Sequence record: NC_008720.1 | Reading direction: 5' to 3' (one strand) | Origin: Escherichia phage N4 | Length of the DNA: 64,000 nt | Translations under genes and position numbers: made by a program | The notes under the pieces: generated by a model | What the model saw: only the letters and a program-made list of their open reading frames with translations | Database searches by the model: none | Told to the model about the DNA's origin: nothing | Part shown: positions 26,298 through 27,063 of the stretch, in pieces | Position numbering within the stretch: the stretch's first letter is position 1 | Layout of the letters: every line of letters starts with the position of its first letter

Positions 26298-26372
26298 GAT
26301 GGTGTAGCTCAGTGGTAGAGCAGTTGGCTGTTAACCAACTGGTCGATGGTTCGAATCCATCCACCATCGCCA
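26298..26372 (+). tRNA. tRNA-Asn (anticodon GTT), CCA encoded
   Basis: Hand-folded cloverleaf: acceptor GATGGTG/CACCATC, D-arm GCTC-AGTGGTA-GAGC, anticodon arm GTTGG-CTGTTAA-CCAAC, T-arm GATGG-TTCGAAT-CCATC, then G and CCA. Confidence 0.85.
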
Positions 26373-26377
26373 AATTT

Positions 26378-26467
26378 GGAAGGTTGTCAGAGAGGCCGAT
26401 TGTACCTGACTTGAAATCAGGAGGCGCAGAGATGCACCCGAAGGTTCGAATCCTTCACCTTCCACCA
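26378..26467 (+). tRNA. tRNA-Ser (anticodon TGA), type II with long variable arm, CCA encoded
   Basis: Acceptor GGAAGGT/ACCTTCC, anticodon arm CCTGA-CTTGAAA-TCAGG, variable arm with GCA-gaga-TGC stem-loop, T-arm GAAGG-TTCGAAT-CCTTC, then A and CCA. Confidence 0.75.
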
Positions 26468-26471
26468 AATT

Positions 26472-26547
26472 GCTGGTTTAGCTCAGTTGGTAGAGCAATT
26501 GCCTTGTAAGCAATGGGTCAATGGTTCAAGTCCATTAACCAGCACCA
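26472..26547 (+). tRNA. tRNA-Thr (anticodon TGT), CCA encoded
   Basis: Acceptor GCTGGTT/AACCAGC, D-arm GCTC-AGTTGGTA-GAGC, anticodon arm ATTGC-CTTGTAA-GCAAT, T-arm AATGG-TTCAAGT-CCATT, then A and CCA. Confidence 0.85.
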
Positions 26548-26555
26548 ATACAGGT

Positions 26556-26635
26556 TATTAGTGAACACACTATAGAACCTCCCAGCTTCCTCCAGATGTA
26601 CGGCAATACATTAGCTGGTAGTGTGTTCACTAATA
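26556..26635 (+). repeat. Perfect 17-bp inverted repeat with 46-nt spacer (long-stem hairpin) after tRNA-Thr
   Basis: TATTAGTGAACACACTA (26556-26572) pairs with TAGTGTGTTCACTAATA (26619-26635); spacer has a nested 6-bp stem CCAGCT/AGCTGG. Confidence 0.8.
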
Positions 26636-26715
26636 GGTTGTACTATCACAGTCCAGACAATATCTGCGTGACTTAAAAAAACAGATGGAGCCAGGTGGAA
26701 TCCCTGGCAATTAAT

Positions 26716-26781
26716 TCCGGTGTAGGTACTAGTGTCGTGCACGGCATGAGTGTTCTGGTTCGAGTCCAGACGCCGGAACCA
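26716..26781 (+). other. tRNA-like 3' fragment (T-arm, acceptor 3' strand, encoded CCA) with no foldable 5' cloverleaf; possible tRNA remnant
   Basis: TCTGG-TTCGAGT-CCAGA, CGCCGGA, A, CCA at 26754-26781; a complementary TCCGGTG sits at 26716-26722, but the 31 nt between cannot form D and anticodon arms. Confidence 0.4.
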
Positions 26782-26789
26782 ATTCGTAA

Positions 26790-26882
26790 GAACTCTTATT
26801 TTGGTTACCGCAAAAGAAGTGAAAAATGTTGTGGAAAACTACTTCCCAATTAGGTTCGAATCCTAAACCAGAGTAAGAGTTC
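26790..26882 (+). repeat. 17-bp inverted repeat (15 Watson-Crick plus 2 T-G pairs) enclosing a T-arm-like hairpin
   Basis: GAACTCTTATTTTGGTT (26790-26806) pairs with AACCAGAGTAAGAGTTC (26866-26882). The two mismatches are G-U wobbles only on the plus-strand transcript. Spacer contains TTAGG-TTCGAAT-CCTAA (26850-26866). Confidence 0.7.
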
Positions 26883-26900
26883 TTTCGAATTGAAGATTTA

Positions 26901-26977
26901 CAGGATATAGCTCAGTTTGGTAGAGCGTCTGCTTTGGGAGCAGAATGTCGTAGGTTCGAATCCTGCTATCCTGACCA
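26901..26977 (+). tRNA. tRNA-Pro (anticodon TGG), CCA encoded
   Basis: Acceptor CAGGATA/TATCCTG, D-arm GCTC-AGTTTGGTA-GAGC, anticodon arm TCTGC-TTTGGGA-GCAGA, T-arm GTAGG-TTCGAAT-CCTGC (one G-U), then A and CCA. Confidence 0.85.
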
Positions 26978-26979
26978 AA

Positions 26980-27063
26980 TTAGTGCTCTGGTATATTACT
27001 TTTAACCCCTAGGTTATGCCACAGTAATACAACAGATTGGGTCATCTGAAACCAGAGCACTAA
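26980..27063 (+). repeat. Perfect 13-bp inverted repeat with 58-nt spacer, 3 nt after tRNA-Pro
   Basis: TTAGTGCTCTGGT (26980-26992) pairs with ACCAGAGCACTAA (27051-27063). Confidence 0.75.

Follow-up and report, generated by a model that had tools for sequence, protein, structure and literature searches.

Covarying hairpins beside tRNA genes of Escherichia phage N4 point to a modular family of small phage RNAs

Phage N4 is a classic model phage. The window analysed here is a stretch of 64,000 nucleotides of its genome (record NC_008720.1), numbered from the first letter, and the existing annotation of a 1.3-kb portion of it (26186-27478) consists of four tRNAs only. We found that this portion holds a dense array of conserved structured RNAs: besides the tRNAs it contains the A5 motif, block C, three hairpins (HP1, HP2 and HP3) and two anticodon-less tRNA-likes (TL65 and TL-B), all of them absent from Rfam 15. 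Positions 26392-27500 are 100% identical to the 70,153-bp N4 record of IMG/VR. The features are listed below in their order along the plus strand.

26298-26372, plus strand: tRNA-Asn (GTT), CCA encoded (ARAGORN; Rfam RF00005, 77.5 bits)
26378-26467, plus strand: tRNA-Ser (TGA), CCA encoded (ARAGORN, Rfam)
26472-26547, plus strand: tRNA-Thr (TGT), CCA encoded (ARAGORN, Rfam)
26549-26642, plus strand: HP1, hairpin with 24-nt arms and a 46-nt cargo (inverted-repeat search, fold, family covariation)
26650-26708, plus strand: A5 motif, two small hairpins (cross-phage conservation, covariation in both hairpins)
26716-26781, plus strand: TL65, 66-nt tRNA-like RNA (sequence, fold, Jura annotation, conservation)
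26780-26892, plus strand: HP2, hairpin with 27-nt arms and a 59-nt cargo (repeat search, fold, family alignment and covariation)
26850-26866, plus strand: canonical T arm within the HP2 cargo, TTAGG TTCGAAT CCTAA (repeat search, fold)
26901-26977, plus strand: tRNA-Pro (TGG), CCA encoded (ARAGORN, Rfam)
26980-27063, plus strand: HP3, perfect stem of 13 bp around a 58-nt cargo (repeat search, fold; invariant in the N4 genus)
27072-27172, plus strand: TL-B, tRNA-like RNA of about 100 nt (cross-genus identity, terminal-helix covariation)
27289-27353, plus strand: block C, conserved 65-nt RNA (cross-phage comparison)
27424-27453, plus strand: intrinsic terminator ending the non-coding array (terminator scan; annotated as a terminator in Jura)

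The four intact tRNAs with encoded CCA ends that the initial annotation had listed were all found by both ARAGORN and Rfam, and each CCA was read in the sequence. Asn, Ser and Thr stand in tandem with spacers of 4-5 nt. Only these four show the mark of a tRNA, taken here as a cloverleaf that has an anticodon loop and scores 29 bits or more; HP1, HP2, HP3, TL65 and TL-B gave no RF00005 hit at E values up to 10 and no ARAGORN call. The inventory of four was incomplete, and a fifth, non-canonical tRNA-like gene, TL65, lies at 26716-26781. It combines an acceptor stem (TCCGGTG/CGCCGGA), a T arm (TCTGG-TTCGAGT-CCAGA) and A-CCA, and lacks an anticodon loop because one long hairpin stands in for the D and anticodon arms. 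TL65 is annotated as 'tRNA-Undet' in Jura, SPSP and AL25, is 87-97% conserved across genera, and carries a compensatory pair of substitutions within the N4 genus (26736 C>T with 26744 G>A). TL-B consists of an 8-9-bp terminal helix (GTGGGATG/CATCCCAC) with 3 covarying pairs, a single long arm in the centre and a mini T arm (GGA-CTCGGAC-TCC). It is 100% identical to its counterpart in Gamaleyavirus PBM-3 over 89 nt, and the CCA that follows it in other genera is absent in N4. The two hairpins of A5, AGUC-CAGA-CAAUA-UCUG-CGU-GACU and GCCAGG-UGGAAUC-CCUGGC, are joined by an A-rich linker, and block C has a GCAGU/GCUGC closing stem around two inner hairpins. As had been claimed, protein coding offers no explanation for the hairpins: the small overlapping ORFs, which cover hairpins and conserved blocks, had no Pfam or PHROG matches, and the loops are swapped among relatives. 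In some related genomes, spurious small CDSs are annotated in the counterpart of the array.

Three inverted repeats had been claimed between the tRNAs, and a repeat search found each at its claimed coordinates. Their cores are as long as described, but the arms of HP1 and HP2 are longer. HP1 has a perfect 17-bp core (26556-26572/26619-26635) around a 46-nt loop, and its extended 24-nt arms (26549-26572/26619-26642) give 21 Watson-Crick and 2 G.U pairs over 24 positions. The sequence enclosed by the arms, called cargo here, itself folds in HP1. The two T.G pairs attributed to the 17-bp core of HP2 (26790-26806/26866-26882) are present, and its extended 27-nt arms (26780-26806/26866-26892) comprise 24 Watson-Crick pairs, 2 G.U pairs and a single U.U mismatch at the ninth position. 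The 59-nt cargo of HP2 is cloverleaf-like, with a T arm that adjoins the 3' arm of the long stem and stacks on it; a T arm (GGTTCGAATCC) stacked on the terminal helix in this way is found in the HP2 cargo only and is absent from HP1 and HP3. HP3 has 13 perfect base pairs (26980-26992/27051-27063) and a 58-nt cargo in which two inner hairpins form.

HP1 and HP3 are the only inverted repeats in the 64-kb window that pair perfectly by Watson-Crick rules over 12 bp or more and enclose a loop of 15-130 nt, and no other long inverted repeats lie outside the array in this window. Block shuffles produced 0-1 such repeats per window. Because 13 bp was reached in 3 of 20 shuffles, HP3 alone is only marginally beyond chance, while HP1 and HP2 are far beyond it. 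The z-scores for plus-strand RNA folding were −7.1, −8.1 and −5.2 for HP1, HP2 and HP3, respectively. A reading of the hairpins as terminators was rejected, as the sequence and the terminator scan revealed no U tail at any of the three and thus no intrinsic-terminator form; the element at 27424-27453 was the sole listing in the plus-strand scan of 26298-27453.

Two of the hairpins had been described as lying near a tRNA 3' end. When the overlooked tRNA-like gene at 26716-26781 is counted, every N4 hairpin starts 0-3 nt after a CCA. HP1 starts 2 nt past the CCA of tRNA-Thr and ends just 5' of A5, the 5' arm of HP2 starts inside the CCA of TL65 with its end 8 nt upstream of tRNA-Pro, and HP3 starts 3 nt past the CCA of tRNA-Pro and ends 8 nt upstream of TL-B. 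Each hairpin spans the gap from the CCA end of a tRNA or tRNA-like to a few nucleotides before the next element.

In three genera of N4-like phages, hairpins at corresponding positions match HP1 and HP2; their stem sequences differ and pairing is kept. By position, N4 HP1 is orthologous to the CTATCAATGAGTAC hairpin family. Among 23 distinct arm pairs of the HP1 family, 93% of the cells were paired and 12 of 21 pairs had changed on both sides, and the 18 sequences of the HP2 family (N4 included) gave 92% and 12 of 19; the percentages are inflated by the collection of members that were required to pair, whereas the double changes are not. None of 500 shuffles was as good in either family, a figure that, like the Wilcoxon figures, is not a true probability given the phylogenetic relatedness of the sequences, and shifted registers were only 32-48% (HP1 family) and 23-42% (HP2 family) paired. 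The stems keep about 20 bp, interrupted at a fixed distance of 8-9 nt from the base by a non-pair. A single covariance model would be uninformative because the loops vary from 28 to 86 nt.

Comparisons at closer range gave a similar picture. N4 HP1 and its AN24P2 orthologue differ by double changes in 4 of 23 pairs with pairing preserved, and double changes occur at 9 pairs among the hairpins with cargo type a, which represent one lineage because the cargo is shared. Cargo a also contains its own covarying hairpin in three phage lineages. The N4 genus shows three stem substitutions, each of which leaves pairing intact or strengthens it: 26632 A>G and 26785 C>T create G.U pairs, and 26787 T>A closes the U.U of HP2. 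Some of the 'compensatory' differences between phages could reflect recombinational replacement of whole cassettes rather than stepwise mutation. The comparisons show that the HP1 and HP2 stems are kept by selection for pairing. Stem-preserving compensatory changes in related phages, on which the initial annotation had staked its proposal, were thus seen for HP1 and HP2 by family covariation and orthologue comparison but not for HP3. HP3 has no comparative support: it is invariant within the N4 genus and no orthologue of it was found. Its core (AGTGCTCTG/CAGAGCACT) is identical to the inner stem of an HP1-family hairpin in BaqKoxi.

The retention of pairing also bears on a possible descent from tRNAs. 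The suggestion that the hairpins are degenerate tRNA scaffolds suits the HP2 loop, with its T arm and cloverleaf-like fold, but not HP1 and HP3, which have no tRNA features. In a stronger version, the hairpins would be neutral wreckage of former tRNA genes without a present role, and the perfect T arm retained in the HP2 cargo, the tRNA-like character of some other cargoes (degenerate cloverleaves in part of the HP2 family) and the richness of the array in non-canonical tRNA-likes are all consistent with such an origin. However, the long stems are kept by double changes in three genera, no hairpin draws an Rfam tRNA hit at E values up to 10, and the hairpin architecture is common to unrelated phages. 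The wreckage reading is disfavoured by the covariation, and we regard it as highly improbable.

The initial annotation had proposed a plus-strand structure at the RNA level, and covariation and G.U bias argue for this in the HP1 family and in N4 HP1 and HP2. The plus strand was the more stable in 27 of 28 HP1-family members (by 8.7 kcal/mol on average) and in 23 of 23 when the arms alone were considered, and 19 of 23 members retain one particular U.G pair. N4 HP1 folds with −40.3 kcal/mol on the plus strand versus −34.7 on the minus strand, and N4 HP2 with −42.4 versus −32.7 kcal/mol. By contrast, the minus strand of HP3 folds slightly better than the plus strand, by 2.5 kcal/mol. In the HP2 family the strands were balanced in stability (8 versus 9); the cause is an A.C, conserved at position 9-10, that would be G.U on the minus strand. 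The tally of non-Watson-Crick pairs over all stems was 65 G.U versus 36 A.C, a bias rather than an absolute rule. This strand test is decisive for the HP1 family and does not discriminate for the HP2 family or for the hairpins of temperate phages described below.

If the pairing acted in DNA, the hairpins could be cruciforms or other DNA-level hairpins, such as N4 virion-RNAP promoters or signals for replication or recombination. N4 does use DNA hairpin promoters, and the strand-symmetric stability of the HP2 family would be compatible with a DNA-level role. However, N4 virion-RNAP promoters have 5-7-bp stems and 3-nt loops and lie at the early genome end, unlike the array with its stems of 13-27 bp and loops of 46-59 nt. 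The same hairpin types also occur in phages without a virion RNAP, and HP1 and N4 HP2 show the G.U bias. A DNA-level role for the hairpins is thus very improbable in our estimation.

Sequence comparison places the hairpins in an undescribed family of modular small RNAs that lie beside tRNAs and are common to many E. coli phages. HP1-family stems bear at least 8 unrelated cargoes and HP2-family stems at least 5; loop cargo is exchangeable on the same stems. In 15 of 17 HP2-family members, the first nucleotides of the 5' arm are the CCA of a tRNA-like RNA, and at least 3 different tRNA-likes take this upstream place. The same hairpin types and A5 are also found in 78-kb FH3-type phages, in temperate phages of about 40 kb and in E. 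coli prophages, indicating that the module is independent of N4-specific machinery. In the temperate coliphages, related hairpins and A5 flank tRNA-Arg(UCU), and the 3' arm of such a hairpin runs exactly up to where this tRNA begins. An exact-pattern scan of IMG/VR with HP1-family arms gave matches confined to N4-like contigs, and the hairpins had no match in 5,426 E. coli genomes. A5 is nearly invariant across phages, with 74 IMG/VR loci and covariation in both of its hairpins. We found no description of the hairpins or of A5 in the literature, including the KP8 genome paper, which reports 'six tRNA genes', two of them unidentified.

Exchangeable cargo between paired arms raises the possibility that the hairpins are selfish miniature palindromic repeats of the MITE, ERIC or Correia type that have colonised phage tRNA islands and spread by recombination or transposition, the pairing being that of terminal inverted repeats in DNA rather than a sign of RNA function. 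Among known repeats of this kind, ERIC/IRU and Correia (NEMIS) elements are 80-150-bp imperfect palindromes with variable centres; they are co-transcribed, and their RNA hairpins can be cleaved by RNase III or RNase E. Inverted terminal repeats that flank a variable cargo, arm types common to phages and prophages that are otherwise unrelated, cargo swaps among close relatives and an HNH homing endonuclease gene in the ZQ2 region all accord with mobile repeats. So does the alternating orientation of arms in temperate phages, where one arm sequence recurs as A-A'-A-A' (A.C 40 vs G.U 33) in a manner that looks like DNA-level repeat dynamics or alternative structures. By contrast, a purely mobile element would not predict the G.U bias on the transcribed strand and the conserved U.G pair of the HP1 family, nor the point substitutions in one cargo lineage and in the N4 genus that keep pairing. 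ERIC and Correia elements occur as tens to hundreds of copies dispersed over bacterial chromosomes, whereas N4-type hairpins occupy phage tRNA islands only, at a fixed position relative to tRNA ends, and N4 has no copy outside the array in the 64-kb window. Cargo and module content vary between relatives, but no target-site duplications or other direct repeats were seen at the hairpin borders and no clean empty site was seen. We consider an origin as selfish repeats unlikely to be the explanation, although such an origin would be compatible with an RNA role; once transcribed, the known ERIC and Correia elements likewise function at the RNA level.

We propose, with a probability of roughly one half, that the hairpins are plus-strand RNA spacers of a tRNA-punctuated polycistronic array and are excised by host tRNA-processing enzymes. 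We infer the processing steps from the geometry of the array and from general knowledge of RNase P, RNase E and RNase III. The four tRNAs, TL65, TL-B, A5, block C and the hairpin spacers would form one non-coding array of about 1.2 kb (~26290-27455), in which the flanking tRNAs and tRNA-likes serve as punctuation. RNase P would cleave at the 5' end of the downstream element, and RNase E or 3' trimming would act at the AAUU-type linker past the upstream CCA. Jointly, these cleavages would free each hairpin as a discrete, exonuclease-resistant RNA of ~85-170 nt, HP1 being freed together with A5. The ends of the N4 hairpins, of the HP2 family and of the temperate tRNA-Arg hairpin lie, in their geometry, at the processing sites of the flanking tRNAs or tRNA-likes, as in tRNA-punctuated small-RNA units of the TMER or tRNA-snoRNA type.

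E. coli RNase III needs about 20 bp or more of near-continuous double-stranded RNA, a length that HP1 (24 positions) and HP2 (27 positions) reach. Processing by host RNase III is plausible from stem length for these two only; its cuts would separate the modules and leave each cargo on a shortened stem. HP3 is not a candidate substrate because its 13-bp stem is too short. Long duplexes or internal-loop hairpins between the functional RNAs of a polycistronic transcript also occur in rRNA operons and phage T7, and host RNase III cuts both the leader-trailer duplexes of rRNA operons and the T7 sites. The N4 array differs from these in the short HP3 stem and in cargoes that are small variable RNAs, not rRNA or mRNA. 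The stems could be pure sites for RNase III (or another enzyme specific for double-stranded RNA) at which the polycistronic precursor is cut and upstream tRNA 3' ends are freed, with the loops as functionless filler. Stem lengths cluster near two helical turns (17-27 paired positions), the hairpins adjoin CCA ends with no single-stranded spacer, the loops vary freely among close relatives, and the fixed internal non-pair resembles the internal loops of T7 RNase III sites. However, the 4-5-nt spacers of the Asn-Ser-Thr tandem indicate that tRNAs can be released without hairpins, at least one cargo is conserved and covaries internally in three phage lineages, and the HP3 stem would again be too short. 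We find it rather doubtful that the stems are cleavage sites and nothing else. The conserved stem architecture, on which cargoes are swapped fast yet are individually structured, suggests that a shared scaffold presents small RNAs and does more than mark places for cleavage. If tRNA punctuation is correct, some 'phage tRNA genes' would really be a maturation system for other small RNAs. This would bear on why phages carry tRNAs, and N4 or BASEL phages on E. coli K-12 would provide a tractable system.

Searches of Rfam 15 at permissive thresholds covered the N4 array, four related loci and two prophage loci; apart from tRNAs, every hit was noise below threshold. Within the reach of Rfam 15, the array therefore contains no tmRNA, Y RNA, known ribozyme, GOLLD/ROOL or riboswitch; ARAGORN also found no tmRNA in the window. 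Y RNA deserves a further word, since two features, a long stem formed by the two RNA ends and interrupted by a conserved non-pair, and the tRNA-like domain of the HP2 loop, are what would be expected of Y-RNA-like scaffolds, in which the terminal stem serves a Ro/Rsr-type protein and the tRNA-like domain is the effector. HP2 shares with YrlA (RF02553) a long terminal stem and a tRNA-like module. However, YrlA scored 15, 17.3 and 19.5 bits against a gathering score of 69, and these hits fell off the hairpins, on T-arm/D-arm junctions of neighbouring tRNAs. The domain order also differs, the tRNA-like domain of YrlA being permuted (T arm, acceptor hairpin, D arm), and we know of no Rsr encoded by E. 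coli K-12 or N4 that could act as a Ro partner. A Y-RNA-like scaffold is exceedingly improbable.

The closest analogues of the N4 hairpins appear to be the T4 species 1 and 2 RNAs and the herpesvirus TMERs. TMERs (tRNA-miRNA-encoded RNAs) of murine gammaherpesvirus 68 carry a viral tRNA-like followed directly by stem-loops, from which it is separated by the tRNA 3'-processing enzyme. These eukaryotic Pol III units are matured by tRNase Z and Dicer, and to our knowledge bacteria have no Dicer. The N4 hairpins differ further in their large structured loops and their multi-tRNA array. The function of TMER4 requires the tRNA-like part and one stem-loop of non-specific sequence (PMC4838037). TL65 and HP2 match this pattern, with structure conserved and sequence not, and the likeness is one of analogy only, without homology.

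In the T4 record, the stable RNAs species 1 and 2 (rnaC and rnaD) are annotated as structured non-tRNA RNAs of 119-139 nt on the strand of the tRNA cluster and adjoining a tRNA, and the N4 hairpins are likewise inside a tRNA cluster, on the same strand and next to a tRNA. Both T4 RNAs are cut from tRNA-containing precursors, and species 1 is reportedly a classic RNase III substrate. As in the HP2 cargo, a canonical T arm (CCGGGTTCGAATCCCGG) immediately precedes the 3' terminal strand of T4 rnaC. Homology to rnaC or rnaD was rejected, as no match to the N4 hairpins extends beyond an 11-nt T loop. The T4 RNAs also differ in lacking a long terminal stem of ~20 bp with a fixed non-pair, and show no sign of an exchangeable-cargo family.

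Beyond the spacer reading, we tentatively raise the possibility that the hairpins and A5 constitute a horizontally exchanged class of phage small RNAs. The tRNAs and anticodon-less tRNA-likes would then be kept beside them mainly as cutting signals for host RNase P and 3' processing, and cargo turnover would reflect phage-host conflict or regulation, in which the RNAs might, for example, act as decoys or sponges that occupy host factors that bind or cleave RNA. Such a class, if real, could also explain the T4 species 1 and 2 RNAs, a puzzle for 50 years. Among the 5,426 E. coli genomes, A5 matches 5 chromosomes, and the two matches examined adjoin phage genes.

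The non-coding stretch 26186-27478, which holds the tRNA array, is flanked by a small gp47-like ORF and a gp48 homologue and lies immediately upstream of the gene for the 3,506-aa virion RNA polymerase on the opposite strand. The array region is 99% identical in the Enquatrovirus N4 isolates OLB145, AlfredRasser/Bas69, Jura and others, and 26392-27500 is 100% identical to the IMG/VR record of N4 (70,153 bp), which bears out the initial reading of an N4-like phage. ARAGORN and Rfam returned exactly the four tRNAs listed in the initial annotation (Asn, Ser, Thr and Pro), all with an encoded CCA, and a repeat finder returned all three long inverted repeats, two of which are longer than first stated. 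The perfect 17-bp core of the first hairpin, HP1, was as described, within arms of 24 nt (26549-26572 / 26619-26642), while the 17-bp core of HP2, with its two T.G pairs, lies within arms of 27 nt containing a single U.U. The main features besides the tRNAs and HP1 are as follows.

26650-26708, plus strand: A5, a motif of ~60 nt with two hairpins, invariant loops CGAUA and UGGAAUC, and an A-rich linker
26780-26806 / 26866-26892, plus strand: arms of HP2 (repeat finder)
26980-26992 / 27051-27063, plus strand: stem of HP3, 13 perfect bp (repeat finder)
27288-27356: third block conserved in BLAST against other genera (block C)
27289-27353, plus strand: RNA of block C, 65 nt, conserved, with a closing stem and two inner hairpins

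A fifth tRNA-like gene, TL65 (26716-26781), was absent from the initial annotation. It combines an acceptor stem of 7 bp with a canonical T arm and an encoded A-CCA, while a single long hairpin with a GUGCAC-type loop stands in for the D and anticodon arms. Counting TL65, not two hairpins but all three start close to a tRNA 3' end, 0-3 nt past the CCA: HP1 starts 2 nt past tRNA-Thr, HP2 within the CCA of TL65 and HP3 3 nt past tRNA-Pro. Gaps of 8 nt separate the 3' end of HP2 from tRNA-Pro and that of HP3 from TL-B, a second tRNA-like RNA.

As plus-strand RNA, HP1, HP2 and HP3 gave fold energies of -40.9, -43.9 and -30.3 kcal/mol, with z-scores of -7.1, -8.1 and -5.2, respectively. In the predicted folds all three loops are structured: that of HP1 extends the stem as an irregular hairpin, that of HP3 makes two small hairpins, and that of HP2 adopts a degenerate cloverleaf whose perfect T arm (26850-26866) stacks on the long stem. 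The full 64 kb contained no perfect repeats of 12 bp or more with a loop of 15-130 nt other than HP1 and HP3, and shuffled sequences gave 0-1 such repeats per window. HP1 and HP2 are far beyond chance, whereas HP3 alone is marginal because 13 bp was reached in 3 of 20 shuffles.

BLAST against other genera (Gamaleyavirus, Kaypoctavirus and relatives) revealed three conserved blocks: 26645-26785, covering A5 and TL65, with 87-97% identity across genera; 27073-27171 (TL-B), with 100% identity over 89 nt to Gamaleyavirus PBM-3; and block C. The sequences of HP1-HP3 themselves were not conserved in this comparison. Despite differing sequence, the relatives hold long hairpins at the corresponding sites: one family upstream of A5 (CTATCAATGAGTAC...GTACTCTTTGATAG), another starting at the CCA of the tRNA-like gene (CCAATTCAAAGTAGCACTG...CAGTGCTACTCTGAATTGG), and two more types with cores AAAGAGTACTG and AAGAGCATT. 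Arms, with loops left out, were aligned from 45 loci of GenBank phages, IMG/VR and metagenomes. Members were chosen for pairing and their sequences are kin, so significance is overstated by the paired fractions (93% of cells for the 23 distinct arm pairs of the HP1 family, against 32-48% in shifted registers; 92% for the 18 sequences of the HP2 family, N4 and Jura included, against 23-42%) and by the shuffle controls, in which 0 of 500 shuffles equalled either family. Independent of this choice are the double changes, with 12 of 21 pairs changed on both sides in the HP1 family and 12 of 19 in the HP2 family, and the fixed position. Both families share an outer helix of ~7 bp, a conserved non-pair at the 8th-9th position (U.U in 16 of 23 HP1-family members; A.C in 14 of 18 HP2-family members, U.U in N4 HP2) and then at least 11 bp. 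N4 HP1 aligned without gaps to the hairpin at the corresponding site of AN24P2, both lying immediately 5' of GTTGTACTATCA.AGTCCAGAC; in 4 of 23 pairs both partners differ while pairing is preserved, and the loops are unrelated. Stem-preserving compensatory changes thus exist in related phages for both families, and we conclude, with a probability of about 0.9, that HP1 and HP2 are selected RNA structures.

Plus-strand folds were the more stable ones for 27 of 28 HP1-family members, with a mean advantage of 8.7 kcal/mol, and for 23 of 23 when only the arms were folded; 19 of 23 members retain one particular U.G pair. N4 HP1 and HP2 favored the plus strand by 5.6 and 9.7 kcal/mol, and none of the three stem substitutions within the N4 genus conflicts with pairing in plus-strand RNA: G.U pairs arise from 26632 A>G and from 26785 C>T, and the U.U is closed by 26787 T>A. 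Taken together, the members of the HP2 family were strand-neutral (8 versus 9), and the family's conserved A.C, a G.U if read on the other strand, counts against a plus-strand reading. The non-Watson-Crick tally over all stems, 65 G.U versus 36 A.C, weighs on the same side, being a bias rather than a strict rule. The evidence gives good support to HP1 and N4 HP2 being plus-strand RNA structures. HP3 showed a slight minus-strand preference, and the RNA-level structure proposed initially is supported for two of the three hairpins, HP1 and HP2. HP3 joins the other two only by association, through the shared position rule and core identity; its core AGTGCTCTG/CAGAGCACT is identical to the inner stem of an HP1-family hairpin of BaqKoxi.

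Shared stems enclose unrelated loop sequences, or cargoes, at least 8 in the HP1 family and at least 5 in the HP2 family, even between close relatives. The loops are not junk: cargo 'a', found in Gamaleyavirus, Kaypoctavirus and the 78-kb FH3-type phages, keeps its single-stranded segments invariant around an inner hairpin with double changes of its own, and a cloverleaf-like RNA of 85 nt with a T arm makes up several of the HP2-family cargoes. The three N4 cargoes are restricted to the N4 genus.

A5, for which no Rfam family was found, shows covariation in both hairpins and is near-invariant among N4-like phages. It occurs in 79 GenBank phages, at 74 loci of IMG/VR, for the most part on contigs of ~40 kb, and in 5 E. 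coli chromosomes, beside phage genes in both of those examined; 78-kb FH3-type phages carry it as well. Its neighbors are always long hairpins and a tRNA or tRNA-like gene (N4, L040, L052, L053 and the temperate-coliphage loci L054-L117). Because either of two CAGA copies can serve as the partner of its UCUG, a structural switch is possible. In these loci, A5 is followed 3' by long hairpins of the same style, whose outer helix is CACAAC/GTTGTG and whose cores, AAAGAGCA/TGCTCTTT, match those of the G and K hairpin types of N4-like phages. In temperate phages the 3' arm of one such hairpin terminates exactly at the 5' end of tRNA-Arg(UCU), and a second hairpin lies 3' of the tRNA. Given its presence in non-N4 phage loci, the hairpin/A5 module must be independent of N4's peculiar transcription machinery, working with host factors or alone. 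In temperate coliphages, a ~19-nt arm, CACAAC-TGAAAGCGCGTTC, repeats in alternating orientation (A-A'-A-A') around this tRNA (for example, +61 to +288 in L054 and +55 to +419 in L094, relative to A5). Successive arms could therefore form mutually exclusive hairpins, and recurrence of one arm sequence in alternating orientation may also reflect repeat dynamics of the DNA. A terminator-like hairpin, GGCGGTACCAG...CTGGTACCGCC followed by CTTTTT, lies 3' of tRNA-Arg in these phages.

TL65 drew no ARAGORN or Rfam call in the window; it is annotated 'tRNA-Undet' in Jura, SPSP and AL25, and 'tRNA-Undet/OTHER' in only some relatives. A compensatory pair inside the N4 genus (26736 C>T with 26744 G>A) falls within it. 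In TL-B (27072-27172, ~100 nt), a covarying terminal helix of 8-9 bp is combined with one long arm and a mini T arm (GGA-CUCGGAC-UCC); this RNA is followed by CCA in other genera and by CACCTCC in N4. Block C holds the invariant single-stranded runs AACAUAGYCCUGA and CUCUAAAGACAA, and one of its pairs changes from U-A to C-G in half the sequences. Additional oversized tRNA-like RNAs with acceptor stem, canonical T arm and CCA, near T4 species 1 RNA in size, were seen in Gamaleyavirus (L003 ~1637-1756, ~120 nt, between TL65 and HP2, TATCAGT...ACTGATAACCA) and 3' of A5 in FH3 (L040 862-1007, ~140 nt, TTACAGGT...ACCTGTAACCA).

Some features of the hairpins are each shared with rRNA processing stems, T7 RNase III sites and ERIC/Correia palindromic repeats. 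ARAGORN and Rfam did not identify them as tRNA or tmRNA, nor Rfam as YrlA; the three hairpins have no features of intrinsic terminators and do not match the N4 hairpin promoter, or a dispersed MITE in a scan of the 64 kb. The T4 species 1 and 2 RNAs come nearest in kind. They are located in the T4 tRNA cluster, and rnaC has a T arm near its 3' end like the HP2 cargo; homology is limited to the T loop, and the T4 RNAs lack a long scaffold stem. The closest architectural analogue is the TMERs of MHV68, in which a tRNA-like part is directly followed by stem-loops and a tRNA-processing enzyme splits the two; one TMER requires for function its tRNA-like part and a stem-loop of non-specific sequence (PMC4838037). 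Structured non-tRNA RNAs inside phage tRNA clusters are a known kind of element, and the N4 hairpins represent an undescribed variant of it. What is new is the sharing of one stem scaffold, cargo that can be exchanged, close alignment to the ends of tRNAs and an association with the widespread A5.

The tRNA strand encodes selected RNA stems that occupy the gap between a CCA end and the following element and carry structured, exchangeable cargo; no coding potential was found, in agreement with the initial view that protein-coding annotation does not explain them. Going by the established cutting preferences of E. coli RNase P, RNase E and RNase III, RNase P would cut at the 5' boundary of whichever tRNA or tRNA-like RNA lies downstream, and the AAUU-type linker behind the upstream CCA would be cleaved or trimmed. 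Both cuts together would free each hairpin as a discrete, exonuclease-resistant RNA, HP1 jointly with A5, in parallel to A5 plus hairpin 5' of tRNA-Arg in temperate phages. The anticodon-less TL65 and TL-B would then serve as punctuation marks rather than translation adaptors. We give this model of punctuation and release an even chance. The HP1 and HP2 stems would also be long enough for RNase III, whose cleavage of them is proposed tentatively.

That the array is transcribed as a separate unit is suggested by a terminator-like hairpin (26154-26185) together with a promoter-like TTGTAA-18 nt-TATAAC (26254-26283). Against 26200-26297, Jura carries a 127-nt insertion 5' of tRNA-Asn (L001 1453-1700) that includes a ~90-nt leader duplication. 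At the other end, 3HA13 and PMBT57 differ at 7 of 8 adjacent bases (27434, 27436-27441) in the array terminator loop (27434-27441), with the same stem except for 27423 in PMBT57, which looks like a small inversion or loop replacement. Two small 'hypothetical protein' CDSs of AlfredRasser/Bas69, bas69_0025 (27060-27167, minus strand) and bas69_0024 (27255-27356, plus strand), coincide in part with TL-B and block C, matched nothing in Pfam or PHROG and are probably spurious gene calls on RNA genes. The corresponding non-coding island of ZQ2 has at its upstream border a gene for a putative HNH homing endonuclease (L041 274-771). In ZQ2 and pSb-1, TL65 is deleted between AATTAATTC and CCAATTC repeats, joining A5 directly to HP2.
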